DNA from: a phage
Assembly: GCA_012441205.1 (NCBI GenBank)
Contig: GCA_012441205.1_4705.1
DNA: 64,000 nucleotides
Direction: 5' to 3' (one strand)
Below are positions 9,978 through 51,563 of this stretch, piece after piece (within the stretch, counting starts at the first letter, position 1; each line of letters begins with the position of its first letter). Both the position numbers and the translations under genes were made by a program. The notes beneath the pieces are model-generated. The model was not told the DNA's origin, did not search any database, and was given only the letters and a program-made list of their open reading frames with translations.

Positions 9978-11045
9978 TTAACCTAACGTCACCGTCGGTA
10001 AATCAGGATAAAGTTTCTTCAAGCCTGCCATCGTGGTGGTAGTTGTATAATTCTTACCCATCGCAGCAAGAGATGCGTATTTCCTACTGCGAGAGAAAAG
10101 AGAATAGAACCCACTGGATGTTTCCATCCACATCGTGAGGAGTTCTGCATCGTTACCGTGATAGTTCGTTTTACCCCATCCAGGTTTAAACGCATCGGCA
10201 AAATCAATTAAACGCGAGGCTTCAGCGTCGTATTCTTTAAGGGTAAGGTACGATGGAATGCGGTAGTTACGAAACAGTAACGTAATGAGTTCAGGGACAA
10301 CGCTACGGGCACGTTCAGCCGTGATAAGTTCGGTGATCACAGCAGCTGTACGGAAATCGCCGTTAAGACCAACGCTGCTTAACGATTCCGCTAAAGTGGT
10401 CGCCATCGCCACTTTATCCTCCGCTGACCCAGAGTCATACAGACTACGCACATCGATGTAGTTGCCTGCTAATGCGGCTTGACGAATCAACGATGTGACA
10501 ACTGTCCGGTTCGTCTTATAGTCGTTGTAACTGAATTCGGTTCGCGTTTTCCCTTGATCGTCGAGATACCGATCGACAATCGTTGAAAGTTTATAATACT
10601 CATCGCCCGACATCAGACTATCGAGAAGCTTAACGTTTCCATCTTTATCAATAAGCTTCCCTAACGCACCATTGGATTGCTGGTTAATGGTACTGTAAAT
10701 CTGGTCTTTTACTTGCGATAGAATGTTATCGGTTGACGATATATTCAGGCCAGTAACATCTTTGATCTTATTCATCAACGCGTTTTCATTCAGGGAGATT
10801 TTGCCTCCGCTGATATCGATGAAAGAATTAAGATCGCTTATGGAAATCAGGTTTCCTGTTAACGCCGATAATGTACTATTGATACTGTTCGTAATACTGC
10901 TGCGAAAACTGGTTAACGCATCCGCCGCTGAAACAGCGGTACCGCTAACCGCTTTAAGGAGCGTATCACGCCCTGTCGAAAAATCGCTGGTGATGGTTTT
11001 GATCTTGGACGTATCTATACTCGGCAGTTTGTCGTAAAGACTCAT
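9978..11045 (-). CDS. hypothetical protein (355 aa)
   Basis: ORF track 9978..11096; preferred start ATG 11045 with AGGAGG 5 nt upstream (MSLYDKLPS...). Confidence 0.65.
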   Translation of the reverse strand: MSLYDKLPSIDTSKIKTITSDFSTGRDTLLKAVSGTAVSAADALTSFRSSITNSINSTLSALTGNLISISDLNSFIDISGGKISLNENALMNKIKDVTGLNISSTDNILSQVKDQIYSTINQQSNGALGKLIDKDGNVKLLDSLMSGDEYYKLSTIVDRYLDDQGKTRTEFSYNDYKTNRTVVTSLIRQAALAGNYIDVRSLYDSGSAEDKVAMATTLAESLSSVGLNGDFRTAAVITELITAERARSVVPELITLLFRNYRIPSYLTLKEYDAEASRLIDFADAFKPGWGKTNYHGNDAELLTMWMETSSGFYSLFSRSRKYASLAAMGKNYTTTTTMAGLKKLYPDLPTVTLG

Positions 11046-11084
11046 CACGTCCTCCTGAAAAAGAAAAAAGAAATACGGCATAAA

Positions 11085-11110
11085 GCCTACCCACACAATG
11101 GTGGGTAGGC
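11085..11110 (-). other. intra-operon stem-loop (GCCTACCCAC / GTGGGTAGGC)
   Basis: Perfect 10-bp inverted repeat between two co-directional minus-strand genes; possible attenuator or RNA-stability element. Confidence 0.35.
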
Positions 11111-11127
11111 TAAGATCAACATCGATG

Positions 11128-11640
11128 TTAAACTTCTTCGTTTTCTGAACCTAATGATTCAGCATCTGGATCGTCAACAGGAATGGTTGCATCAAAATAC
11201 CGTTTCGTATGCGTGGTTGTATATCCTACGCTATCTGTGATGGAAATCGTAAACGTGACTTCCCTTGCACGGATTAAGCGTAGTTTATTCATGAAGTTAC
11301 GGAACGGCATCGATCCCCGATTCAACTCCTTAATGACGTTTCCCCGAATACTGGAAATGTCTTTATTCGTTTTATCAGGGTGTCGTTTCTTCACATCACG
11401 CATATGTCGGGTAATATACGAATTGAGCTGATTTGCGCCGATCCCTCTCTCCGTATAAATCTGCAACAGGAACTCCGTAAGGAAATCCTGTCTACCCGTA
11501 GGCGTCCAGAAATTGTTACCGTGATTGTAGTTAGTCGCTCGTCCTCGATTGCTTTGAGGATTTTCATCATCGCTTTCATCACGACGCTTAAGCGGATTAA
11601 TGCGTGCGCGGAAAGAGACTTCATTATATTTATTTGTCAT
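11128..11640 (-). CDS. hypothetical protein (170 aa)
   Basis: ORF track 11128..11685; preferred start ATG 11640, which overlaps the upstream stop as ATGA. Confidence 0.6.
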   Translation of the reverse strand: MTNKYNEVSFRARINPLKRRDESDDENPQSNRGRATNYNHGNNFWTPTGRQDFLTEFLLQIYTERGIGANQLNSYITRHMRDVKKRHPDKTNKDISSIRGNVIKELNRGSMPFRNFMNKLRLIRAREVTFTISITDSVGYTTTHTKRYFDATIPVDDPDAESLGSENEEV

Positions 11641-12152
11641 AATACACCAGTGTACTGACTGAGTGCGAAGGTTAGGAGTTCGCAACAGTCTCTCGCTAGT
11701 TTCCTTGTTTTGCGTAATCCATAAGCCGCATCCAAATCGTCACGTTCCGCCAGCGCGTCTAACCACGTCGCAAGTATGCGTCCATACTCGATAACGTCAC
11801 GCATGAGAACGTCGAACCGGATAACACGACCATCGGCATCAGCAAGCCAACGATTGAACGTGATTTGTGGTGCTAGTATTGCATATGTTCTCTCCTCTAA
11901 TGCGATTATGTTTATGTTGCCTTCGTTATCGAACGCTTGATGCCAACGGCGAAGGTCAAGCATCAACGACTCAGCGTCCATATACCACAACGGTAAATAC
12001 GTTTTACGTGCAACGCGTATATCGTAGATGTTGTGAACCCAGGACGTTGTTTTGTAAAGCAACAAGAGTTCGTTTAACCGTTGCCTATCATCTTGAAACG
12101 TCTTCCTTTTATAACGTTGGAACGCACGCCTCAAGAAAAAGCGATGTAACAT
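11637..12152 (-). CDS. hypothetical protein (171 aa)
   Basis: ORF with ATG 12152 and AGGTGA upstream. Confidence 0.6.
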   Translation of the reverse strand: MLHRFFLRRAFQRYKRKTFQDDRQRLNELLLLYKTTSWVHNIYDIRVARKTYLPLWYMDAESLMLDLRRWHQAFDNEGNINIIALEERTYAILAPQITFNRWLADADGRVIRFDVLMRDVIEYGRILATWLDALAERDDLDAAYGLRKTRKLARDCCELLTFALSQYTGVL

Positions 12153-39737: not shown

Positions 39738-40283
39738 ATGTCTACTTTAGACTTTAACAAAGCAGCGAAATCCCTTCTGCTTGATCTTATTAACACCAAA
39801 GCGACCCGCACATTGGCTGAAGAAGAACTGCAGTTCGGTACTCCGCAGGAATCTTCCGAACATGAAAAGAACACCGTTATTCAGCTGGACGCGGCGGCTG
39901 AAGCAGCTAACCTGCAGGGTACTCAGCAGTTCTACTACGATCGTCTGGCTCTGTCTGACGTTTTCGCTGATGTAACTGGTGATGTTACTTTCGAACTGCC
40001 GCACGGTACTGACAGCATTCAGGCTTCTGAGCTGGTAAGCAAGCTGGTCACCAAATTCGGTCTGGCTTCCCTGAATGGTGAAATCAGAGAAGAAACCTTC
40101 CAGCTGTCTGCCGGTACTGTTGATGAGGTAATTCTGAATGCGATCGAGGGTGGCCTGGTATACACTGGTACTCTGCGAGTTGCCCTGACCTACGCACTGG
40201 CACCAAAAGACGAACTGGCAACCGTTCTGGCGAATAACGTAGCTGAAGGTTTCGAGAAACCGACCGTTAGCGTTGTTGGCTAA
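39738..40283 (+). CDS. paralogous-family protein (181 aa), strongly codon-optimised, probably highly expressed
   Basis: ATG 39738 with GAGGA upstream; near-exclusive use of CTG, GGT, CGT, CCG, GAA, GCT, ACT, TCT codons; architecture parallels the neighbouring 297-aa protein. Confidence 0.7.
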   Translation: MSTLDFNKAAKSLLLDLINTKATRTLAEEELQFGTPQESSEHEKNTVIQLDAAAEAANLQGTQQFYYDRLALSDVFADVTGDVTFELPHGTDSIQASELVSKLVTKFGLASLNGEIREETFQLSAGTVDEVILNAIEGGLVYTGTLRVALTYALAPKDELATVLANNVAEGFEKPTVSVVG

Positions 40284-40478
40284 TAAGCACATAGAGCAAT
40301 AGTATGGGTTTTGTACAGCTCGGCTATTGATCTTCTACAATTTGGTTGTAACAATCTGCGTGGTTGCACGCTTATCTTTCTCATTGAACGCTTCGTATGA
40401 AGCGTGGTGTTGAAAGGGTTGTGGATCTCCTCAAGCGGCCAGGGACCCAGACCAACCTGAATAAACACAAACACATGT

Positions 40479-40512
40479 TAAGCCCCTCCTCATCCGTTAT
40501 TGGGTGGGGGGG
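40479..40512. repeat. degenerate hairpin related to the junction family
   Basis: CCCCTCC-tcatccgttattgggt-GGGGGGG, between convergent genes ending at 40283 and 40577. Confidence 0.3.
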
Positions 40513-40576
40513 GTCTTATACGTCTTTATGCGTTCCGTTCGTTCTGGAGCGTTTTAGGACGGTTTATGATGGTGTT

Positions 40577-41212
40577 TTACTCAACACTGAACCCGTTCAA
40601 GATGATCGCTTCATAACGCTTACGTTCACGACGTTTGCGTGCCTGCCAACCGTAGATGAATTTCTCATCTTTCTCACGACGTTCCGCTAATTCGATGTAA
40701 TAGGTGCTCTGCATGTCCAGCATCGCATCGATGAGATAATCCTTACCGGTTGCACCACGCTTAGCGATGTAAGCGTCGAGCGCGCTTAACGTCGCAGGTC
40801 CCATCAAACCGTCGGCGTTGATATTCTTCCAGTACGTTTGTCGGTTGTTCATGACGTTCAGATAACGTTGGAGGTTCTTAACCGGGACGGTTTTGCCAGC
40901 ATTGATACCCAGGTCAAAGAGACGGTCAGCTAAGAACACAGAACGTTTCATGACTTCGTCAAGTTTCATCTTATCCCAGAAGTGGGTCTTGTAGATAAAG
41001 AACGCCATTTCCGTGGTAAGGTTACGCATGTTACCGTCCCAGCCGAATTTCGTTTTCAGCGTGGTTTTGTATTGATCGGCGAGTGTTTTCGTAATGCCGT
41101 GGTTCGTGATTCCACCCGAGTCATCGGGATCGTCGACGTAACCTGCTTCGATGCTGGTTTTATCGCGAATGATAAATTCGCACGTGAAATCTTTCTCAGT
41201 AATCTTAGCCAT
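40577..41212 (-). CDS. endolysin, GH108-type lysozyme domain plus peptidoglycan-binding domain
   Basis: AGYVDDPDDSGGITNHGIT matches the GH108 EGGY..DP.D.GG.T..GIT motif; GLMGPATLSAL matches a PG-binding motif; GAGGAG upstream of ATG 41212; no signal peptide or SAR-like N-terminus. Confidence 0.75.
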   Translation of the reverse strand: MAKITEKDFTCEFIIRDKTSIEAGYVDDPDDSGGITNHGITKTLADQYKTTLKTKFGWDGNMRNLTTEMAFFIYKTHFWDKMKLDEVMKRSVFLADRLFDLGINAGKTVPVKNLQRYLNVMNNRQTYWKNINADGLMGPATLSALDAYIAKRGATGKDYLIDAMLDMQSTYYIELAERREKDEKFIYGWQARKRRERKRYEAIILNGFSVE

Positions 41213-41338
41213 TAGAACTCCTCGTTTAAATAACGATTTAGAGGAACAGGAAGGGTCTAGAACGCGATAAACGATTTAACCCAGGCAAACCCTAGATTAA
41301 ACTTTTCGAAGCGTTACAACGCGTTCTAGAACGTTGAA

Positions 41339-41800
41339 TTAAATACCCTTGGTTCCCTTCACGTGATGTGCAATTTCTTCAACCATTGCACGCAGAGCAC
41401 GAAGTTGTTGGTCATGTTCGTACCAACCACCCAACAGAACCCCGCTATACACCATGGTGTCAAGACTTAACAGCCCTTTATCTGATACGTTGATCATTTC
41501 CGGGAACTGTTCTTGAACACGCTGTGCGATAACACCGATCTTCTCGACATCAGGATCGTAGTTGTGACGGAAACGGGCAAGTCCGGTATACGCCATTTCA
41601 CGTAAACGATCACTGAAAGATTCCGGATGATCTTTCAGATAACGAATGTCATGTTTACTACGTTCATCCGAGCGAATGTAAGCGTTAGGAACATCGATAT
41701 TGCTGTTGAAGTACAGCGCACTACCACCGCCTGCAGAGTTCCCCCAATAGAAGCGTGTGATCTCACCGCCACCATTCTCCGTGATGATGACATGTTTACC
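41339..41800 (-). other. S74-like intramolecular chaperone (auto-cleaving) domain region of tail fibre
   Basis: SDERSKHDI Ser-Lys dyad motif near the protein C-terminus. Confidence 0.55.
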
Positions 41801-43387
41801 TAAACGCGTACCGCCACTACCATCAACGAAGACCAGTTTGTTTCCGCTGTAAGAACCCCAGAACAAACGTGTATCGATGATGTGCGTTGCAGCGAGGCGG
41901 GCGTTACGTGGCGTAGAATACACGGTGTTAACATCTTGCTGCGCTTGCGCATCGGAAGCGATACCATAGTTCTGTACGTTACCTAACCCAACCTGCGCTT
42001 TCGTAACCGCGTGTGGGTTATCACGACGGTTAGCGTGAGCGTTAACCAGATCACCCGCTAATTTCTGAATTGCCCAGTTGGTAGACTGTGGTGTCATGTA
42101 ACGGTTAGTTGCAGAACCACCTTGCGCTTCAGCTTGGTTAGCGGTTGGATAGTTCTCAACGCTTCCCAAACCGACCTGCGCTTTGGTTACTCTGTGTGGG
42201 TTGTTCTTGTCAGCGATGTGCGCATTAAGCGGAACTAACGCAAAGGTCTCAATGGACGCTTTGGTTGTGTTCGGTGCCATTAATCGGTTAGCTGCAACAC
42301 CGGCACGCGCTTCTTCTTCAGAAGCCATCGGATAGTCTTGCACATTCCCTAACCCAACCTGCGCTTTGGTTACTCTGTGTGGGTTGTTGTAATCGGCTTT
42401 ATGTGCATTAAGTGGAATCAATGCGAACTGTTCAATCGCTGCAACAGTGCGTAGCGGCGTCATGAAACGGTTGTTCGCTGTTCCGGCTTTCGCCTCATCA
42501 TCCGAAGCGGTCGGGAAGTTATCAACGTTCCCAAGGTTAACCTGTGCTTTGGTGACGCTATGCGGGTTGTCTCGACGGTTAGCGTGAGCGTCGACTAGAT
42601 CGCCCGCCAGTTTAGCAATCGCCCATCCAACCGTTTGTGCTGTCATGTAACGGTCTGGTGCGGTACCGGCTTCTGCCTCCGCCTTGTTGGCAGTAGGATA
42701 GTTCTGTACATTACCTAGTCCGACTTGGGCTTTTGTGGTTTCGTGCGGGTTATCGGTACGGTTAGCATGTGCGTAATGCAGATCGGTCAGATCTTTATCC
42801 GCTGCTTGCATGTCTTTGCGTAACTGATCGATTGCCGCCCAGAGACGGTTATCGGATGCAGCATCACCGATAAGTATTGCGGCTTTCAGTGAATAGATCG
42901 CTAAGCAAAGATGTTCGGTACCGTAGATAGCACTAACGTGGTGGATGTGTGGTTCAGGCGGATAAAGTTCCGGTTTGTTCTTGATGTCGTCCCAGTTGAT
43001 CGGACGATCGTCAAGTTTGAGTTCTTCGATAGCCTGATACAACGCGTCAATAAGACTTACGTAAACACCACCGATGATACGATAGTCGTTAACTAACGTC
43101 CCCTCGATATCATCGTTGATGATGGCGATGGCTGCACAGATTTCTTTACCAGCGTAAAGCGTAGCGTCCTGATACAAGAAGATGGGTTTGTAATCCACGC
43201 CGCGTACCAGTGTCTTACCGGTAAGCTTTTCAGTGATGACCAGACTTTCGGTGAAGAACGGTCCGCCATCAAGAGCGTAACATTTGTTCTCGGTTCGTGG
43301 AACGGTATGCTCTTCACCAACGATGTGGTTGCTATCGAGCGTGCCGGTCCAGTCCTCGGGGTACTTCAGGGTAATTGGTGTTGACAT
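41339..43387 (-). CDS. tail fibre protein with tandem repeats and C-terminal S74-type intramolecular chaperone domain
   Basis: Five repeats of about 50 aa of type NPH.VTKAQVGLGNV.NY.....EA..G...NR.MTP; C-terminal YIRSDERSKHDIRYLK...GLLSLDTMVYSGVLLGGW typical of the autoproteolytic chaperone of fibres and tailspikes. Confidence 0.75.
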   Translation of the reverse strand: MSTPITLKYPEDWTGTLDSNHIVGEEHTVPRTENKCYALDGGPFFTESLVITEKLTGKTLVRGVDYKPIFLYQDATLYAGKEICAAIAIINDDIEGTLVNDYRIIGGVYVSLIDALYQAIEELKLDDRPINWDDIKNKPELYPPEPHIHHVSAIYGTEHLCLAIYSLKAAILIGDAASDNRLWAAIDQLRKDMQAADKDLTDLHYAHANRTDNPHETTKAQVGLGNVQNYPTANKAEAEAGTAPDRYMTAQTVGWAIAKLAGDLVDAHANRRDNPHSVTKAQVNLGNVDNFPTASDDEAKAGTANNRFMTPLRTVAAIEQFALIPLNAHKADYNNPHRVTKAQVGLGNVQDYPMASEEEARAGVAANRLMAPNTTKASIETFALVPLNAHIADKNNPHRVTKAQVGLGSVENYPTANQAEAQGGSATNRYMTPQSTNWAIQKLAGDLVNAHANRRDNPHAVTKAQVGLGNVQNYGIASDAQAQQDVNTVYSTPRNARLAATHIIDTRLFWGSYSGNKLVFVDGSGGTRLGKHVIITENGGGEITRFYWGNSAGGGSALYFNSNIDVPNAYIRSDERSKHDIRYLKDHPESFSDRLREMAYTGLARFRHNYDPDVEKIGVIAQRVQEQFPEMINVSDKGLLSLDTMVYSGVLLGGWYEHDQQLRALRAMVEEIAHHVKGTKGI
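41990..42820 (-). repeat. coding tandem repeat array (tail-fibre shaft repeats)
   Basis: Repeated DNA blocks; segment TTCTCAACGCTTCCCAAACCGACCTG at 42156-42181 recurs at 47836-47861 in the second fibre gene. Confidence 0.6.
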
Positions 43388-43400
43388 AACCTGGAGGTCC

Positions 43401-45998
43401 TTATAACGTGACTGTACCTAATTTGGTTGTCTTATTGAGATTAATGACTGAGATCTGGGTATCGCTGGTCGTGATGGTGCCGATATTAACGCGCTGTCCT
43501 TTATCATCCTCTTGCTTGTGGATGGTTAATTCCAGCTCTAACTGGTTACCATTAGGAACAACGGAAACGTACCATGTTTTATTACCTGGTGAGCTATTAT
43601 AGTCTTTTAGGTTATAATGGCCTTTAGGTAAGGTCATGGCCTTACCAGCAAACAAACATGAAATATCCTCGTTGATATAAACGTCGAAACCGGAAGAAGC
43701 GATGACTGTTGAGGCCATTATTCGAGACGCGACGATACCACGATTATAGTCGTCGATTGTGGTACCTATGACATTGAATACTTGCCCCCCGTTACCCATA
43801 ATGGTCGATTCGCTAGTGTTTACGTAGCCGATACCCCAAGTCGGATGAATGTTCCAGCGGTACCCACTGTTTTGTAAATATGTATACAAGTCTTCATAGG
43901 CCGCATTCACCCAACTACCATCACTTTTTCGTCCAGCCCTAAATTGGAATGTATTGCTATTTCCAGATGTTCCTCGGCCAAGAGGGACATGTCCCGCCAC
44001 TAACCAACCATCTGTACTTTGCATATACGCGAACGAACCGTACGCTCTGTTATCGGCCCAAATATTCACGGTATCAACACGTTCAACGTAGGCGATCACC
44101 TTTTGTACGCCGGTTATAGCGATCGAACCCTTGCGTGCCGACACACTAACTTCAGCAATTACGACACCCATTTTCCGCTGGCTGCTGTTAAATCCCAATA
44201 CAACCATTAAACACGGTGCGTTTGTTGTTTCTGGAGGAATCGTTATCGATTGTTTCCAGTCGGTGATTCCGCTGAGTTTTGTTCCAGTATATGCGTTCCA
44301 GACGGTTTGTCCAGCCGATTTCAGATTCTGTTCAGAAATAGAAATGGCCTCGCCCTCAGGGATTAACGTGTCGTAATTGAGACCAATGTTGCTGGATAGA
44401 CGAAGGTCGTTTAAGTAAGATCCGCTGAGTGTGACGTTACCGTTACGATAAATTGTCAAGAATGGCGCAGCCAGGGAGTTTAATACCGTAAAGTTACTCG
44501 ATGGCATGAAACCATAGACATCGATGCCATTACCGTGGTAATGGTAGTTTGTCCAACTACCTTGATAACTTACGGTACGTGCATCGTAGTGGCCTTGTCC
44601 AAGACCGCTGCTGGATAACGTGTATATCTTGGTTGCTGATAGAAATGCGAGATATCCATGCGCTGCCAGAGCTCCAACTACCCTGTCTTTTATCTTTAAC
44701 CAAGCTGAAGTATACAACGTACTGTCGGGATTCATTTTGGCTATTTCATCGTAAGCCGTGCCTGCGAAGTTTCCGATAGTGTACGTACGTATATCCGGCT
44801 GTCCGTTATTGTCGTTCTGTACAGCAATTACTTGCCCAGAATCATTGATATCGATATTACCGATACAGTTGTGAGCCCCCCACACCCAATATCCATCTTT
44901 ATAATTGGATTCTCCTTGTGTAAATGTCGACGGTCCTCGCCACGCGATGCCGTTCGATTCGGCGTAGTAGGTAGCTTGTCCCGATCCTGGATTCATGGCG
45001 TATCTGTTATTGGTCGGGTCAAAATCGATGTAAAAATGATGCATTCCTTGACGTTGACGGTTGTCCCGATCATTTGTCCACCACGACGAACCGACCAGAA
45101 TTCGCGCCTTACCATTTTTTACAGTGGACCATAAACGTATTGCGGCGCGCCAGACGATTTGACCGATCCCGTTGGACGGGAAACTATTCGTACTGATGCT
45201 GTTGCAGACAACGAGCTCGCTGCTGTTGTTTATTTGAGTCCCTTCAATTGTAACGCCGTTTATGTTAGTAATCAGTGTTGCCGATACACTACCCCCTGTA
45301 GGGGCGATAGAGGAACGTTGAACGGTGTAAATTTTTAGTGATAATTTATAGCCGCTCCGAATAGCTATACCAATGTAAATAGTTCCGTTAATTTCCCAAC
45401 AACAAACATCGGGCATTGTTTCTTTGAAATCGGATAAAGCACCGTCGATATACATCGCAACGTGTTTACTGGCGTCGAATGTGCCGTCCGTTAACGCGAT
45501 GAACATTTTGGCGTTATTGCCGTTGATATCAGCCGCTAATCCGAGTAGTATGTTGTTCTGATGACAGTAGATGGCTTTAGGTGCTAGATCCAACATAGCT
45601 GGTTGGTACTGTCGGCTTGTTGGTATTACGCTAGTAACTGCACCATTTTGATCCGTTTTACAAATAACGTAATATACACCGTGTATGATGCTGTTTGTCG
45701 CTGACCTCAGTAGGACGATCGTCCCGTCAGATTCACGACATATACCGTAATGGCGATAGTCGGTGATTAAACCGATAGCGCCATCGGCCGAACCTTCGAT
45801 TGCCAGAGGAAAATAACTTTGGTCCCCAACCTGTTCGATATCGGTTGCGCCGATATCGATGTATTTTTCCATCTCAGTGTTGAACTCAGCGGTACTGTAG
45901 GCACCGAGATCGCTCGCCTTTAGTCCCGTTGGGTTGTCACGACTGGCGATACGTGTAGTAACGCTACTCACCAGTTCGCTGAACTTTTTCATTGCCAT
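43401..45998 (-). CDS. large tail protein, putative tailspike or receptor-binding protein (865 aa)
   Basis: N-terminus MAMKKFSELVSSVTTRIASRDNPTGLKASDLGA shares an anchor-like motif with neighbouring tail proteins. Confidence 0.55.
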   Translation of the reverse strand: MAMKKFSELVSSVTTRIASRDNPTGLKASDLGAYSTAEFNTEMEKYIDIGATDIEQVGDQSYFPLAIEGSADGAIGLITDYRHYGICRESDGTIVLLRSATNSIIHGVYYVICKTDQNGAVTSVIPTSRQYQPAMLDLAPKAIYCHQNNILLGLAADINGNNAKMFIALTDGTFDASKHVAMYIDGALSDFKETMPDVCCWEINGTIYIGIAIRSGYKLSLKIYTVQRSSIAPTGGSVSATLITNINGVTIEGTQINNSSELVVCNSISTNSFPSNGIGQIVWRAAIRLWSTVKNGKARILVGSSWWTNDRDNRQRQGMHHFYIDFDPTNNRYAMNPGSGQATYYAESNGIAWRGPSTFTQGESNYKDGYWVWGAHNCIGNIDINDSGQVIAVQNDNNGQPDIRTYTIGNFAGTAYDEIAKMNPDSTLYTSAWLKIKDRVVGALAAHGYLAFLSATKIYTLSSSGLGQGHYDARTVSYQGSWTNYHYHGNGIDVYGFMPSSNFTVLNSLAAPFLTIYRNGNVTLSGSYLNDLRLSSNIGLNYDTLIPEGEAISISEQNLKSAGQTVWNAYTGTKLSGITDWKQSITIPPETTNAPCLMVVLGFNSSQRKMGVVIAEVSVSARKGSIAITGVQKVIAYVERVDTVNIWADNRAYGSFAYMQSTDGWLVAGHVPLGRGTSGNSNTFQFRAGRKSDGSWVNAAYEDLYTYLQNSGYRWNIHPTWGIGYVNTSESTIMGNGGQVFNVIGTTIDDYNRGIVASRIMASTVIASSGFDVYINEDISCLFAGKAMTLPKGHYNLKDYNSSPGNKTWYVSVVPNGNQLELELTIHKQEDDKGQRVNIGTITTSDTQISVINLNKTTKLGTVTL

Positions 45999-46010
45999 TA
46001 TTCACCTCGA

Positions 46011-46496
46011 TTAAATAGGCGAGTCGGGTAGCTGACCATCATCGATCTCGATGGTGGCCACCTTACGTGTTGCAGCAAGATGTGATGTACCCTGGATTTT
46101 GTTCCAGGTGCCGATACGCATGGCGTTTTTGTAGCTGCTATCGCTATCGTTCAGCGTGTAAACAAAACCGCTATCGGTTACGGCAAGATAGATCCAGCCT
46201 ACAGACTCACTGATGCCTGACACATCCAAAGTTGCTGCTGGCACCGTCCCTACCACCGTGTTGTATTCCGCTGTACCTTGACCAATGCTGATCCGGCCGT
46301 TGCTGTAAGTGGCTGCCGGAAGCGTTTTATTTCGACTGAAGAAAAGAAACGGAAGGTAACGCTGAGTAACAAGCGGTGCAAGTTTAGGAGCCACTTCGGT
46401 CTTAACGTAGACATTTGTTTGTGCTGGCGTTACCTCGTGAGGGTTCTTTTGGGTGAGATACGCTCCCCATTCAGAAAGCAATGTTGATAGCTTCAT
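46011..46496 (-). CDS. small tail-associated protein (161 aa)
   Basis: N-terminus LSEWGAYLTQKNPHEVTPAQTNV resembles the fibre N-terminal/repeat motif. Confidence 0.5.
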   Translation of the reverse strand: MKLSTLLSEWGAYLTQKNPHEVTPAQTNVYVKTEVAPKLAPLVTQRYLPFLFFSRNKTLPAATYSNGRISIGQGTAEYNTVVGTVPAATLDVSGISESVGWIYLAVTDSGFVYTLNDSDSSYKNAMRIGTWNKIQGTSHLAATRKVATIEIDDGQLPDSPI

Positions 46497-46500
46497 GCGG

Positions 46501-47016
46501 TTACCCCATGTAACGTTTTTGGCCGAGGATGAAGACTTTGTTGAATACCACCGAAGTGATTCCTGTTGCGTTACAGCTCACCTGCCCGACGCGAATTGCT
46601 GTTGATGTATCGACCCCAGCACTACTCTGCCAGATCCAATCGATCGATCCGTCTTTCTGACGAATGAAAAGATAACCGGTTTTGTTCGCCCAGTCGGAAG
46701 TAAGTTTTTTGATGTCTAGCGTTCCCTTCGCCAGAATATAGTCGGTACCGGCGATCATGACGGGTATTTCAGGATACGAGATTACCGTACCGCTGGCAGT
46801 AACGTTGCTGATGCGTTCGCTACGAATATCGGTACAGTCACCGAAATACGCTACGGGGAGTATCCCCTTAGGGAGCTTTTTGCCGATTCTCGTATCGATC
46901 GTGTTTTTATCGGGTGCGTCGATTTGCGCTGCGGTGACTTGGTTAGGGTTATCCTTCCTTGCGTACCATGTCGTCATGCGAGCACCCAATTCACTCATTT
47001 TTGTGCCCATTTTCAC
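46501..47016 (-). CDS. small tail-associated protein (171 aa)
   Basis: N-terminus MSELGARMTTWYARKDNPNQVTAAQI resembles the fibre N-terminal/repeat motif. Confidence 0.5.
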   Translation of the reverse strand: MKMGTKMSELGARMTTWYARKDNPNQVTAAQIDAPDKNTIDTRIGKKLPKGILPVAYFGDCTDIRSERISNVTASGTVISYPEIPVMIAGTDYILAKGTLDIKKLTSDWANKTGYLFIRQKDGSIDWIWQSSAGVDTSTAIRVGQVSCNATGITSVVFNKVFILGQKRYMG

Positions 47017-47067
47017 ATCCTATCGAAAAATAAAAAGAAGGAAAGGTGGGTAGAACCCACCCATCCG

Positions 47068-49221
47068 TTATAACGTTTCGAAGTCGGTTGCTTTGATAAC
47101 CGCGTTGAAGTTGGCAAGGAATTCCTTAAGCAGTGCTTGGAAGACATCACGAAACGCTGTGTTCGTCTGCAAGCTGGTTAAATAATCGTTCTTAAGGTAA
47201 TCGCTCAGCTTACCGATCTTCTGCATCTTCTCGCCGTCTTGGTTCTCTCCAGGTTCTTGGCTGTTGATGTTAACCCATTTGATCCCTTCGAGATCACCAT
47301 CGGCAAGGAAGTTGGCGGGTGTCTCATCGTCGTTCAGGATTTTAATCGTATCACTGGATTCAATGCCACCGTAAGCTTCCAGAAGCTGGTTGACTGTTAG
47401 CTTATTGGTGTTGATTGAACCATTGACACCATCGATACCGATGCCTGCACCTGTGATGGATGTCGCCGAAAGATCGATCGGTCCGGTTAACTTACCACCG
47501 TTGATCGGTAACGCACCAACTTGCTCAGCGGTGTGTGTATGGTCAGCTAACGCCGCAAACGCCACGATAGACTTATATGTCGAATACGGCGTCATATACG
47601 CTGATTGGTTGGTGTTGTCAGCCGCTTCAGTATCGGTAGCGACATTAAAGTTCTGCACGTTGCTGAGACCGACCTGCACCTTCGTTACTTCATGCGGGTT
47701 GTTCTTATTGACAACGTGTGCTGCAAAACCATCACCAGCTAAAGCAGTGATTGCCGCTTTTGTCGCAGCCGGTGTCATATAGCGGTTGGTTGCTTCACCC
47801 GTTTGCGCCTCTTCGTCGGAAGCAACAGGATAGTTCTCAACGCTTCCCAAACCGACCTGAGATTTTGTTACTTGGTGTGGGTTTTCGGTATTCGCAATAT
47901 GACTACTGAACCCTTGACCCGCCAGTTGCTCGATTGCGTAACGAACAAGTATTGGTGTCATGTACTTGTTGTTAACTTGACCATCGATAGCTTCTTGGGT
48001 GGTGGCAACCCCGAAGTTTTGCACGCTCCCCAACCCAACTTGAGATTTTGTTACCCCATGGGGGTTATTGGTGTTACCGATGTGTTCGGTTACAGTTGGG
48101 GTGATTAATGCTGCGATAGCGGCTGCTGTGGTCGCAGGTGTCATGTATTTATCGTTAGCAACACCCGCAGCAGCTTCTACGTTAGATGCTAAACCGTAGT
48201 TCAATACACTACCCAACCCAACCTGAGCCTTGGTTACCCCATGGGGGTTGTTCTTGTCTCCGGTATGGGTTGTCAACGAAGCATTAACGTTATCGATACG
48301 TGTACTTAAGCCATCGGTGATTGCTTTGATTGCGGCTCGTACACCCGCTGGAGTCGTGTACAGATTTGTGGCCGTACCGGTAATAGTTGTATTACTATCG
48401 GCTACACCGTAGTTCTCAACGTTTCCGAGTCCGATCTGTGCCTTGGTCACCTTGTGTGGGTTGTTGTAGTTGCTGATGTGCGCAGCGGCACTATCACCAC
48501 TCAGGTTAGCGATCATCTTACGTGTCATCGCCAACGTCATGTACAGATTTTCACCGATGGTTTCCAGATCGCTCTCGGTCGCCGTTGTGAAGTTCTGCAC
48601 ATTCCCTAACCCAACCTGAGCCTTGGTTACCCCGTGGGGGTTATCGCGACGATTCTCGTGCTGCAACAATGCGGTCATTGCTTTATTGAACCCTTCTTCA
48701 AGCGGTTCTTTCAATGATTCGATTGCAGCTACCACATCGTCCCACGTCATTGTGTCGGTTTCGACATTATGCTGGTGGTTAATTGGCGGGAATACGGAAG
48801 GAACGTCGGCAACCTTTTCCCAGAATGTAACGCGAGGGTCGTAAAGGTTGTTGGCTAAAACGTTAAGAATTTGCTGCTGATCGAGTGTAAACTCACCCCC
48901 CAGTGAATAGTAGTTCAGTTGCAACTGTCCACTGAATGCGGTGTCCAACAGCATGATGGAACCGTATAATTCCAGGCCGGTCAGCGCAGCCATGGCACGG
49001 AAGGGGTGAGTGCATAAAAAGTCAACGCCTTCTTCCAGATACGCGTTTGTTTCAGGGTTATAGATCTTTAACCCATTACGAAAATATGGCGCGTATTTAG
49101 GAACGAGAAAGTTAAATCCGGTCCCCGTGGAAGGACGGACAGTGACGAGTTCTTCTGGAACCCATGCGCCATCCAAATTCCCCTGCGGGTTATACGGAAG
49201 GCGTTTAATTTCATCTGTCAT
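47068..49221 (-). CDS. tail fibre protein with six tandem repeats (717 aa); no S74 domain
   Basis: Repeats NPHGVTKAQVGLGNVQNF..., NNPHKVTKAQIGLGNVENY..., NNPHGVTKSQVGLGSVQNF... and others; distinct C-terminal domain. Confidence 0.75.
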   Translation of the reverse strand: MTDEIKRLPYNPQGNLDGAWVPEELVTVRPSTGTGFNFLVPKYAPYFRNGLKIYNPETNAYLEEGVDFLCTHPFRAMAALTGLELYGSIMLLDTAFSGQLQLNYYSLGGEFTLDQQQILNVLANNLYDPRVTFWEKVADVPSVFPPINHQHNVETDTMTWDDVVAAIESLKEPLEEGFNKAMTALLQHENRRDNPHGVTKAQVGLGNVQNFTTATESDLETIGENLYMTLAMTRKMIANLSGDSAAAHISNYNNPHKVTKAQIGLGNVENYGVADSNTTITGTATNLYTTPAGVRAAIKAITDGLSTRIDNVNASLTTHTGDKNNPHGVTKAQVGLGSVLNYGLASNVEAAAGVANDKYMTPATTAAAIAALITPTVTEHIGNTNNPHGVTKSQVGLGSVQNFGVATTQEAIDGQVNNKYMTPILVRYAIEQLAGQGFSSHIANTENPHQVTKSQVGLGSVENYPVASDEEAQTGEATNRYMTPAATKAAITALAGDGFAAHVVNKNNPHEVTKVQVGLSNVQNFNVATDTEAADNTNQSAYMTPYSTYKSIVAFAALADHTHTAEQVGALPINGGKLTGPIDLSATSITGAGIGIDGVNGSINTNKLTVNQLLEAYGGIESSDTIKILNDDETPANFLADGDLEGIKWVNINSQEPGENQDGEKMQKIGKLSDYLKNDYLTSLQTNTAFRDVFQALLKEFLANFNAVIKATDFETL
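47640..48660 (-). repeat. coding tandem repeat array (tail-fibre shaft repeats), second fibre
   Basis: Six approximately 120-150-bp repeat units; shares near-identical stretches with 41990-42820. Confidence 0.6.
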
Positions 49222-49252
49222 GATGCGCCCTTTACAAGTTGTTAGTAAGAGT

Positions 49253-49272
49253 GGGATACCCTGGGGTATCCT
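49253..49272. promoter_or_regulatory. palindromic operator-like site in divergent intergenic region
   Basis: GGATACCC-tg-GGGTATCC, followed by AT-rich TATAAAATA and AAGGGGG before ATG 49326. Confidence 0.35.
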
Positions 49273-49325
49273 GTGTTAACAGCGGTAAAATATTACTGTA
49301 ACTATAAAATAAGGGGGCCTCTACC

Positions 49326-50606
49326 ATGTATACATTGGTAAAAACTTACGGATTACCCGTAGGTTCTGGCACGGCCTGGACAGCACTTGAGGCGGGTGAA
49401 AGTGTCCTGAGTACGTTGTTCTCAACGTATCAAAAACTCAAGATCCAGGTTCATGAAAGCTATGCTGACCAGCAACAAGTTATTGATCTGTACGCATTTC
49501 AATCCGAGCTTCAAAATAGTAGCGATACGCTTAATGCGTGGTTGAAAGCGAAATCGGATGCGCATACCAACCTTCGCGGACAGCCCGGCGAGCTGTCGAT
49601 TAAAACCCACAAGCTCTATTGCCATGACGCTATTACAGTAGGCTTTCTTCCCAAAGTCGGTAATAGCGGCTATCATCCGAGCAACGCGATCCCTGAGTCG
49701 GAACGCACTGATATCCTGTTGACGAAAGCAAATACGAATTACGAAAATATCGGCAAACATTGTCTATTCACCGTAGGCGGTTATGTTCACCCTCATGTCT
49801 ACGGTAAAGATGTTGGCGTCTATATCCAGGGTGGGTTCAAAACAGCACAGCGCAGCCAAGAAAACGATATCGGCATGATTGATTTTAGCCGTATCGGGAG
49901 TTTGGAAATTCATGCTATCACAGAAGAGATGATTGCTGATTCCACGAAGCTCTTGCCGTATAAGGACGAGATGTACTTACGGCTACCGCGCAAGGTCGCC
50001 GAAGATGAAACCGTTGCGCTGGTGTTCGGGGGATATTTACATCTTCTTGACGATTGTTACACGATCGTTAGTGACACGACAGCGAAAATAAACTGCATTA
50101 ATATGTTTCTGTATGAAAGATACTTCCGCTCCCGCAAATACCTTGATTTAACATCCCTTGGTATTCTGCTGAACGAAGAAGACCCGCAGTCCGACATTGT
50201 TGCCAATCGTTTACTGTCCGATAAAGCATTAAAAGCTTGGGTGACGCACCCCTGCAGTTTCTGGGTGTATATCAAAGCAACATCGATTCAGGTTACGCAA
50301 GAACCTTTACCACGAAGTGGCGTACCAGGACAATATTTCTTAGGTAAGAAACCGGAAGGACTGATTCGAGCCGATCTCGGCGAGTTACCGGCTTACGTGC
50401 AGACCTATGAAAAACCGTTATGGGTACTTCACTCGCGTTGGGGACTTCGTAAGAACATGTTGTTTGAAAATACATTGTACAAACATACCCGCGTTAAGAG
50501 ACTTAACGATACGCCTTATCTTCACCAGGTTTGGTTGGAAACGCATGCGACGTTACAGACAGTACACAAGCTCGAATTGATCGATTCCAGTCAGAAAAAC
50601 AAATAA
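49326..50606 (+). CDS. hypothetical protein (426 aa), plus-strand gene inside the tail module
   Basis: ATG with AAGGGGG upstream. Confidence 0.6.
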   Translation: MYTLVKTYGLPVGSGTAWTALEAGESVLSTLFSTYQKLKIQVHESYADQQQVIDLYAFQSELQNSSDTLNAWLKAKSDAHTNLRGQPGELSIKTHKLYCHDAITVGFLPKVGNSGYHPSNAIPESERTDILLTKANTNYENIGKHCLFTVGGYVHPHVYGKDVGVYIQGGFKTAQRSQENDIGMIDFSRIGSLEIHAITEEMIADSTKLLPYKDEMYLRLPRKVAEDETVALVFGGYLHLLDDCYTIVSDTTAKINCINMFLYERYFRSRKYLDLTSLGILLNEEDPQSDIVANRLLSDKALKAWVTHPCSFWVYIKATSIQVTQEPLPRSGVPGQYFLGKKPEGLIRADLGELPAYVQTYEKPLWVLHSRWGLRKNMLFENTLYKHTRVKRLNDTPYLHQVWLETHATLQTVHKLELIDSSQKNK

Positions 50607-50657: not shown

Positions 50658-51563
50658 TTATGCTACATATAACGTCAGATAACCGTCGATGAGCGTATTC
50701 ATCACACTGAGTTGAAGTACGACAGCTTTACTACCATCTGTACGTACACCGAACGGTAGTGTTTTGAATTGCTCTGGATCGGCTATTACTTGCGCATTCT
50801 GCAAGTTGAGCGGTCCAGGCATTGCTGACAATACCCAGCGATCGTTGACCATAAGGCCGTCGATCTCTTCAGAGAGACCCAATTGCAGTGCGTTCATTTC
50901 TGCGATTAGTGCCTCCGATTGCGTATCGCCTGAGGTTAGCGTATACCCATCGGTAAGCGATGCCAGAACACCAGCAGATACGAACCAGTTGTACGAAACA
51001 ATAGCGCCTGGGAGTTTACTGCTATCTCGATCGATGATATAATTCAACCCAGCCAACATATTGTTGCGAACGAGGTTGTTGAGGTCATTATGTCCTGAGG
51101 TTAACTCAACAAGTAACTGACCAACCCATACTTGGTTACCGGGTTTAGGTGTTATCATAACCTGTATCGGTGACTTGGACTTATCCAGATCCGCGTCGAC
51201 AATCTCGGTTTTGTTGAGAAGGATACCGTACGTCGATGCTAAGACAGGTAGGATCTCAGAGACCTTGGTTAATGCATCTAAGGTTTCGATCTCGATGGGC
51301 CAGCGGTGCTGTCCGCCAGACCAGGTACCCAGTTTACCAAGATCGATGCGGTTATAATAGATGTCGACAGAGTTCACCAACCCTGAACCCGGTTGGGGAT
51401 GCACGGTTAACTTGCTGTTACGCTTGTACCATGTGCTTTCAGAAGCCTCACCGATAACCAGTTTATCCAGCGTTACGCCTCGAGCATCGAAATCGCTATG
51501 CTTTCGAATCAGCAGAAAGAGGATTTCTTTCGATTCTAACCCCAGGATTTCACTGTACTCCAT
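50658..51563 (-). CDS. paralogous-family protein (301 aa)
   Basis: Motifs YYNRIDLG, LASTYGIL; similar to the 283-aa and 311-aa neighbours. Confidence 0.6.
   Translation of the reverse strand: MEYSEILGLESKEILFLLIRKHSDFDARGVTLDKLVIGEASESTWYKRNSKLTVHPQPGSGLVNSVDIYYNRIDLGKLGTWSGGQHRWPIEIETLDALTKVSEILPVLASTYGILLNKTEIVDADLDKSKSPIQVMITPKPGNQVWVGQLLVELTSGHNDLNNLVRNNMLAGLNYIIDRDSSKLPGAIVSYNWFVSAGVLASLTDGYTLTSGDTQSEALIAEMNALQLGLSEEIDGLMVNDRWVLSAMPGPLNLQNAQVIADPEQFKTLPFGVRTDGSKAVVLQLSVMNTLIDGYLTLYVA

Follow-up and report, generated by a model that had tools for sequence, protein, structure and literature searches.

A phiKZ gp131-type peripheral tail-fibre module in a Goslar-like jumbo phage, with repeat-bearing fibres and variable non-repeat cassettes

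The fibre locus and its homologues

Evaluating a 64,000-nucleotide stretch of phage DNA (GenBank assembly GCA_012441205.1, contig GCA_012441205.1_4705.1; hereafter the window), we followed up a preliminary description, made from its letters alone, of a multi-component fibre or receptor-binding cluster at 41339-49221. All five open reading frames of the cluster were confirmed on the minus strand at the coordinates first given (5/5), and they encode two fibre proteins, A (682 amino acids, aa) and B (717 aa), and three proteins lying between them, C (865 aa), D (161 aa) and E (171 or 169 aa). Comparison with phage phiKZ and with Escherichia phage vB_EcoM_Goslar (NC_048170), whose genes gp025-gp029 the cluster matches at 93% nucleotide (nt) identity over 82% of the region, identifies the locus, at the level of sequence and gene order, as the module for the peripheral tail fibres of a nucleus-forming jumbo phage of E. 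coli closely related to Goslar. This host-recognition locus is of the ordinary, known phiKZ-gp131/Goslar fibre-module type. Its genes and domains, with the divergent gene beside them, are as follows.

41339-43387, minus strand: fibre gene A (682 aa), equivalent to Goslar gp025
42779-43387, minus strand: gp131-type N-domain and helix of A
41873-42778, minus strand: five 61-aa repeats of A (aa 204-505)
41672-41872, minus strand: short tip of A
41339-41671, minus strand: Peptidase_S74 intramolecular chaperone of A (aa 573-682)
43401-45998, minus strand: protein C (865 aa), equivalent to Goslar gp026
45789-45998, minus strand: conserved N-terminal module of C (aa 1-70)
43641-45788, minus strand: variable cassette of C with the predicted beta-propeller (aa 71-786)
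43401-43640, minus strand: conserved C-terminal domain of C (aa 787-865)
46011-46496, minus strand: protein D (161 aa), truncated paralogue of E, equivalent to Goslar gp027
46401-46496, minus strand: N-terminal helix and NPHEVTPAQ motif of D
46501-47016, minus strand: protein E (171 aa from GTG), truncated paralogue, equivalent to Goslar gp028
46912-47016, minus strand: N-terminal helix and NPN-QVTAAQ motif of E, followed by a ~85-aa C-terminal domain common to E and C
47068-49221, minus strand: fibre gene B (717 aa), a phiKZ gp131-type fibre, equivalent to Goslar gp029
48670-49221, minus strand: N-terminal domain and long helix of B (aa 1-184)
47551-48669, minus strand: six 61-aa repeats of B (aa 185-557)
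47068-47550, minus strand: C-terminal domain of B, 160 aa, of no known family
49326-50606, plus strand: gp130 homologue (426 aa), equivalent to Goslar gp030, divergent from the fibre cluster

The start of E is probably the ATG at 47010 (169 aa) rather than the GTG, a choice that matches every homologue.

Residues 4-211 of B match phiKZ gp131 (PHIKZ131) at 31% identity (E=4e-26), a kind of match held by 289 jumbo-phage records, and A matches gp135 and gp131 (E=7e-31 and 3e-29). The product of 49326-50606 matches phiKZ gp130 (blastp, 25% identity over 343 aa, E=9e-27). A hidden Markov model (HMM) of the repeat unit common to A and B recovers one to three copies, some of them partial, in each of phiKZ gp131 (3 stretches), gp132, gp133, gp134 and gp135; of these, gp132 (110 aa) has the make-up of the C, D and E N-termini, a helix and a single unit. 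Beneath each of the twelve gp130 copies of phiKZ one of twelve peripheral fibres is attached through six N-domains of gp131 type and a bundle of six helices; these are attributed to three copies of gp131 together with gp133, gp134 and gp135, and the authors liken such fibres in function to short tail fibres (PMC13250141). For Goslar, virion proteomics detects all five of gp025-gp029 (5/5), and label-free quantification (LFQ) under its first normalisation gives ~58 copies of gp025, ~50 of gp029 and ~12 of gp030, with gp026, gp027 and gp028 at ~8.5, 9.2 and 9.5 (bioRxiv 10.64898/2026.04.21.720040, Table S4). Homologous and syntenic to phiKZ gp130 and gp131-135, and with its five Goslar orthologues present in purified virions, the cluster bears out the multi-component fibre or receptor-binding function first attributed to it.

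The likeness to phiKZ extends to the succession of gp131-type N-domain, helix and NPH unit, to a paralogue cluster beside a divergent gp130 homologue, to a short paralogue lacking the N-domain (gp132) and to a beta-propeller, here a predicted one, as the presumed receptor module. The two systems differ in that each phiKZ paralogue has one to three units, against five in A and six in B, and that the N-domain is kept by four phiKZ paralogues, against two here (A and B). Moreover, the predicted propeller here sits on C, which has no N-domain, fibre A ends in an S74 chaperone, and a hetero-hexamer composition is known for phiKZ only. The crystal structure of the C-terminal propeller of phiKZ gp131 is said to have been determined by Sycheva et al. 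in 2012. With Goslar, the orthologues share order and lengths and, outside one cassette, 93-100% nt identity, whereas the window carries another allele of the gp026 cassette and a private patch, which we read as gene conversion, in repeat A4. The outcome is a concrete parts list and domain map for chimallivirus tail fibres, which are unmodelled in the cryo-electron microscopy (cryo-EM) studies of Goslar and phiKZ.

Repeat units, their copy number and exchanged tracts

The two fibre genes carry, as first described, tandem repeats of an NPH-VTKAQVGLGNV-NY motif, with five copies in A (NPH at aa 213/274/335/396/457) and six in B (aa 194/254/325/386/447/508), and the unit HMM likewise finds five domains on A and six on B. 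The period is 61 aa (183 nt), except for one step of 60 aa (180 nt) and one of 71 aa (213 nt), the consensus reads H-x5-NPHxVTKAQVGLGNVxNY-x2-A(S/T)xxEAxxGxxxxxYMTPxxxxxAI, and pairwise nt identity between units is 37-69%. Tandem Repeats Finder (TRF), run on 40000-50000, reported no tandem array within the fibre genes because the unit copies are too diverged. Pfam and NCBIfam returned no model for the 61-aa repeat region, even at E up to 10, and a PDB sequence search with A and B gave nothing for the repeats, its L18e matches to A and B (E ~0.01) being judged spurious. The repeat is nonetheless present in many PHROG families, those of A and B fitting the first 110 positions of phrog_3573, so that a widespread fibre repeat (>1600 proteins) is without a curated family model.

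The 61-aa period is strict in >100 family members. Across 63 diverse members two His (one at -6, one in NPH), the N, the P and the Leu of GLG are invariant, the invariant His falling in B, for example, at residues 188/194-196 and 248/254-256; by analogy with T4 fibres, one might speculate that the two His of each unit serve as metal sites in an oligomeric shaft. Further large fibre proteins (P0159-P0166) have as many as 13 copies of a shorter form of the repeat, ~37 residues long (H-x5-NPHxVTxAQ-xxYTKxE-helix).

We modelled B and C with AlphaFold2 (AF2) as monomers, at moderate confidence (predicted local distance difference test, pLDDT, 67-71; B 66.7). The model of B has a confident N-terminal domain at residues 10-125 (pLDDT ~90) and a long helix at 160-190, and its unit is predicted to run from an extended NPH...GLGNV segment through a short helix to a ~20-residue helix ending at the invariant His. 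Foldseek with this model gave weak matches to phage baseplate chains (KP1 9f4b and T4 5iv5, E ~6-7e-5) with negligible TM-scores. Third in rank was T4 baseplate chain 5iv5_AI (526 aa, E=7e-5), which from its length we take to be gp12; against the gp12 crystal structure 5lye the model scores E=0.054, and T4 gp12 differs from B in having no sequence similarity to it and another repeat architecture.

An S74-type intramolecular chaperone had been proposed for the first fibre only, and this proved correct: residues 573-631 of A match PF13884 at 26.6 bits against a cut-off of 22 (E=7.7e-6), whereas neither PF13884 nor any other Pfam domain was found in the C-terminus of B, Peptidase_S74 occurring in A alone among the cluster proteins. 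A weak match also links the C-terminus of A to the S16 long-tail-fibre chaperone region (6f45, E=0.005). A thus resembles the S74 fibres K1F endosialidase, T5 pb1 and S16 gp37 (PDB 6f45) in carrying PF13884 above the cut-off; it differs from them in that its self-cleavage is predicted from sequence and that the mature tip would span only ~65 residues beyond the final unit. Among the Goslar peptide-table rows listed, none matched any of six tryptic peptides from this chaperone, which, given that the sequences may differ, is uninformative on cleavage.

Repeat number was compared in seven Goslar-like genomes, namely the window, Goslar, L002 and L004 (two IMG/VR genomes), L015 and L016 (Salmonella-labelled or Logan contigs) and L014 (a relative 54-64% identical in the fibre protein), and it is five in A and six in B in all of them (7/7). 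Relatives 46-50% identical carry five or seven units, and copy number ranges from 4 to 13 only across the wider family, in which the C-termini are very diverse (120 best of >1600 members). Read from these alignments, gain and loss of repeats does occur, yet only over deep time. Neither mark of a contingency-type repeat locus, copy number that differs among close relatives or high DNA identity between units, is found here. The preliminary description had cast repeat-number variation as a route to host-range change and had suggested comparing copy number among related phages; at least in the Goslar-like clade, that comparison lends the idea no support.

The claim that near-identical DNA joins the two fibre genes was overstated, seeing the identity between units, and the best inter-gene blastn matches are 68% over 261 nt and 89% over 47 nt. 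A self dot plot (18-nt words), the check proposed at the outset, gives only short exact tracts, all in register on repeat diagonals. Even the example pair offered earlier (42156-42181 and 47836-47861) is offset by 1 nt, and as given only 8 of its 26 positions agree, although it points at a real tract of 32 nt, the first of the following.

42147-42178 and 47828-47859, minus strand: exact tract A4/B5, 32 nt
42174-42205 and 42357-42388, minus strand: exact tract A4/A3, 32 nt
48215-48240 and 48608-48633, minus strand: exact tract B3/B1, 26 nt
42339-42361 and 48596-48618, minus strand: exact tract A3/B1, 23 nt

To judge these lengths we used a null in which the amino-acid sequences were fixed and synonymous codons were resampled from the cluster's own usage (2000 trials, 55 unit pairs). 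Under this null the longest in-register exact run reaches 28 nt at most (mean 16 nt, 99th percentile 23 nt), against the observed 32, 32, 26 and 23 nt, so that the core of the claim survives in the form of inter-gene tracts of up to 32 nt that exceed chance.

Polarising events with Goslar (L003) and the two IMG/VR genomes, we located one patch private to the window and its counterpart in B.

42147-42205, minus strand: patch in repeat A4 read as a window-specific conversion, with B5-identical and A3-identical halves
47828-47859, minus strand: segment of repeat B5 identical to the A4 patch

Nine of the 35 private substitutions in the 2049-nt gene A fall within 24 nt of this patch (42170-42193; P=6e-8 for clustering, ~3e-6 corrected), and all nine change to the sequence of A3 (5' half) or B5 (3' half), while A4 in the other three genomes has the ancestral NPHQVSKAQ in its own codons. 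Since the B5 segment is 100% identical between the window and Goslar, whereas A4 differs between these two, its sequence makes B5 the likely donor of the A4 patch. Long tracts also occur in the other genomes (Goslar B1/B3, 44 nt; L002 A2/A5, 31 nt, and A5/B6, 28 nt; L004 A2/A5, 35 nt), among them a B6-to-A5 inter-gene conversion in L002, and synonymous polymorphisms co-vary between paralogous units within each genome. The tracts are ~25-45 nt long and mostly synonymous, one of them changing QVS to RVT. We read these patterns as recurrent short-tract ectopic gene conversion, within and between fibre genes A and B, because the long tracts are lineage-specific and exceed the codon-resampling expectation. 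The repeats would then be recombination substrates as first suggested, through clustered lineage-specific conversions, but the exchanges are short and largely silent; what is documented is ongoing short-tract gene conversion among fibre repeats. In L004 the orthologue of gene B (10001-12151) has 62 private substitutions concentrated around B3 (equivalent to window 48170-48470; 77-78% bin), and since they match none of L004's own units, import of this patch from an unsampled phage is suggested.

T-even phages provide a parallel. Tetart et al. are said to have described in 1996 and 1998 that conserved motifs ('His boxes') of gp37/gp38 act as recombination sites. Short conserved motifs there also give homology for exchange and conserved sequence also flanks variable receptor-binding modules, but motif recombination reportedly swaps adhesin segments and domain duplication shifts host range, whereas here the patches are short and homogenising and copy number is fixed.

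Intervening proteins and variable cassettes

The N-termini of C, D and E had been said to resemble the fibre motif, and the resemblance is borne out by profile comparison. Each has a helix followed by NP(H/N/T)xxVTxAQ, profile-profile alignment (hhalign) of these N-termini with the unit gives 93% probability (E=2.8e-7), and the unit HMM, run against all 435 open reading frames of the window, ranks E (E=0.0037) and D (E=0.033) directly after both fibres. D and E align over their full length (E=7e-7), E matches the N-terminus of C at 31% identity (E=3e-5), and residues 83-165 of E match the C-terminal residues 778-861 of C (E=9e-5). Within phrog_3573, C fits positions 97-971 and E the last 85, and in other phages the families that contain the C/E-type C-terminal domain and the body of C (phrog_3573, 7449, 7557) have profiles beginning with a gp131-type N-domain or repeats; the gp131-like N-terminal attachment domain is absent from C, D and E. 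In an exhaustive search, residues 13-47 of D matched large multi-repeat fibre proteins at 3-10 places in each (E down to 2e-12), and these proteins carry the ~37-aa repeat variant, to which the D N-terminus is closer than to the 61-aa form. Pfam and NCBIfam offered no model for C, D or E, nor for the C-terminal part of B, with one sub-threshold match, Lyase_8 to D, and a homology search with the 171-aa E returned close orthologues only, in Goslar-like phages. Against the distant L014, the first 30 residues are the best conserved part of D and E (57% vs 0-53% elsewhere) and are among the best conserved of C, in which one other bin reaches 70%. By these alignments C, D and E are mutual paralogues, each with a helix and a single degenerate copy of the unit start.

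Comparing the window with L002, L003 and L004 in sliding steps over 40.5-51.6 kb, we found 90-100% nt identity nearly throughout, with a few local dips to 71-88%, except at 43641-45788. There, in the middle of C (residues 71-786), identity between the window and each of the three relatives is down to 46-72%, against 88-99% among the relatives themselves, whereas the first 70 and last 80 residues of C are at least 90% identical. The cassette shares 59% aa identity with that of Goslar gp026, and a database search yielded a series of C alleles at 96, 89, 80, 66, 48 and 33% identity, all of 864-867 aa and with conserved ends and a variable centre throughout; full-length relatives of the cassette at 22-25% identity reside in unrelated 350-380 kb enterobacterial jumbo phages, such as the GAP32 group. 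In the AF2 model this cassette of ~715 aa holds a lectin/sialidase-like beta-propeller. Two alleles of the distal B segment (47100-47900), at 77-86% nt identity, are present in these four genomes, and in L014 the C-terminus of A is substituted by an unrelated domain without S74. On sequence comparison, the main variation among relatives thus lies in C residues 71-786, the distal part of B and the A tip, and not in the repeats.

The divergence of 35-50% throughout the C cassette, its constant length and the allele series suggest to us that recombination has been exchanging alleles of old standing, and on these grounds a diversity-generating retroelement or hypermutation, considered for the cassette, was set aside. 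Residues 71-786 of C would be the cassette most likely to set specificity, and its conserved flanks would be usable for engineering swaps. The gene order of L014 (2821-10595) is B, A, E, D, C, with an A-like gene directly after B, as opposed to B, E, D, C, A in the window, and because of this order and the A-like fibre without S74 the cluster appears rearranged as well as mosaic.

Proposed fibre assembly and rival explanations

Taking these observations together, we consider it probable that the locus works as a gp131-type fibre module in which the repeats form the shaft, C, D and E are docked on it, specificity changes through cassettes and conversion is a by-product. By analogy with phiKZ, A and B would be the shaft-forming fibres, their N-domains nucleating the fibre base under the gp130 homologue. 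The 61-residue units would build the shaft, and their number would set a fibre length that is held constant in the Goslar-like clade. The N-terminal helix and NP motif of C, D and E may be a docking element that inserts into the helical bundle or first-repeat region at the fibre base, an idea prompted by the six-helix bundle of the phiKZ gp131 paralogues, which puts forward a testable hypothesis for the anchoring of three truncated paralogues. The modelled propeller of C would be a putative carbohydrate-binding or carbohydrate-cleaving receptor module. As the sequence comparisons suggest, specificity may evolve by swapping whole non-repeat cassettes (C 71-786, the B distal part, the A tip) between conserved flanks, and frequent short ectopic conversion may partly homogenise the motif without being the main route to new specificity.

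Several points weigh against this picture. A and B exceed C, D and E by ~6:1, which misfits a simple one-to-one complex, and LFQ copy numbers are rough. C and E have NPT and NPN instead of NPH and so do not have the invariant unit His, for which reason the one 'repeat' in each may differ in fold from the units of the shaft. The propeller matches of C share only 5-10% sequence identity, and the AF2 models, monomeric and moderate, are poor for the N-terminus and last 100 residues of C and for the C-terminal 160 residues of B. Goslar cryo-EM could not resolve the fibres, and the Goslar literature lists gp025-gp029 merely as likely fibre or peripheral-baseplate components (bioRxiv 10.64898/2026.04.21.720040). 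Finally, Goslar has a further fibre system at NC_048170 98471-102861, comprising gp090, a 1324-aa P1 gpS-like tail fibre, and gp089, a Caudo_TAP (Tfa) assembly protein, which by coordinate mapping lies outside the window; because of this additional P1 gpS-like fibre, the cluster need not be the primary specificity determinant.

A more specific arrangement, which we put forward only tentatively and think doubtful, would combine one copy each of C, D and E into a heterotrimer (1:1:1), whose three chains would make up a pseudo-shaft turn, on an A3B3 base, once per gp130 homologue and thus twelve per virion. It would explain why gp026, gp027 and gp028 are equimolar and near the level of gp030 and why their first 30 residues are conserved, and it fits the Goslar proteomic ratios only roughly. 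If true, every peripheral fibre would be an organelle of branched form, ending in at least three distinct tips.

The preliminary description had favoured another role for the shared repeats, as substrates whose recombination yields repeat-number variation and fibre chimeras and thereby host-range change. This explanation can draw on the exact inter-unit tracts beyond the codon-resampling null, on the lineage-specific inter-gene conversions (B5 to A4 in the window, B6 to A5 in L002) and on the copy numbers of 4-13 in the family, with five or seven units in relatives 46-50% identical, but we regard it as unlikely: copy number is fixed in the seven Goslar-like genomes, the conversions are short and largely synonymous, and the strong divergence sits in the non-repeat cassettes. 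With units of 37-69% identity and longest exact matches of 32 nt in the window and 44 nt across four genomes, the repeats also make a poor substrate for unequal crossing-over. We think it highly improbable that, in place of recombination, the identical tracts arose by chance, were inherited from a common ancestor or are kept by selection for particular codons or an mRNA structure within the conserved motif. They do lie in the most conserved stretch, NPHxVTKAQVGLGNV, and the null resamples codons independently, ignoring site-specific codon preference; against this, the long tracts occupy different unit pairs in each genome (A4/B5 and A3/A4 in the window, B1/B3 in Goslar, A5/B6 in L002, A2/A5 in L004), the nine clustered A4 changes all go to the A3 or B5 state (P ~3e-6), and synonymous polymorphisms co-vary between paralogous units within genomes.

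Chaperone genes commonly follow fibre genes, and C, D and E might instead be assembly factors, chaperones or unrelated baseplate parts, their motif mimicking the repeat so as to template or cap shaft folding and their virion signal being carry-over. Consistent with such a role, the fibres outnumber them ~six-fold, D and E are small and have no recognisable binding domain, and the Goslar preparation also contained assemblies from outside the virion, such as chimallin and PhuZ. We nevertheless judge it improbable, since the 865-aa C combines a lectin/sialidase-like propeller with a cassette-like allele series typical of receptor-binding proteins, C/E-type domains are found elsewhere in families starting with a gp131-type N-domain or repeats, C, D and E are equimolar and near the level of the gp130 homologue, and the analogous short paralogue phiKZ gp132 is annotated as a structural protein.

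Beyond the module itself, two neighbouring genes border the region.

40577-41212: GH108 and PG_binding_3 endolysin, downstream of the cluster
50658-51563: DUF7941 protein, equivalent to Goslar gp031

DUF7941 proteins have been proposed to form a filament 'cloud' on the peripheral baseplate (bioRxiv 10.64898/2026.04.21.720040), and since one of them adjoins here, host-recognition genes flank the fibre cluster; L014 and L015 have DUF7941 genes on both sides of it. The endolysin gene dips against Goslar to 71-83% nt identity (41100-41200 and 40700-40900) within ~95% identical surroundings, and between it and the end of A lies a 16-nt inverted repeat (41251-41266 and 41320-41335, 88% complementary). 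Directly after the B stop codon, a terminator-like GC hairpin followed by a T-rich run (47044-47062, minus strand) precedes the three lower-abundance paralogues E, D and C. The 104 nt that separate B from the divergent gp130 homologue contain a near-perfect palindrome, GGGATACCC-TG-GGGTATCC at 49254-49272, a possible regulatory site that appears in the TRF output as a repeat of 10 nt x 2.2.

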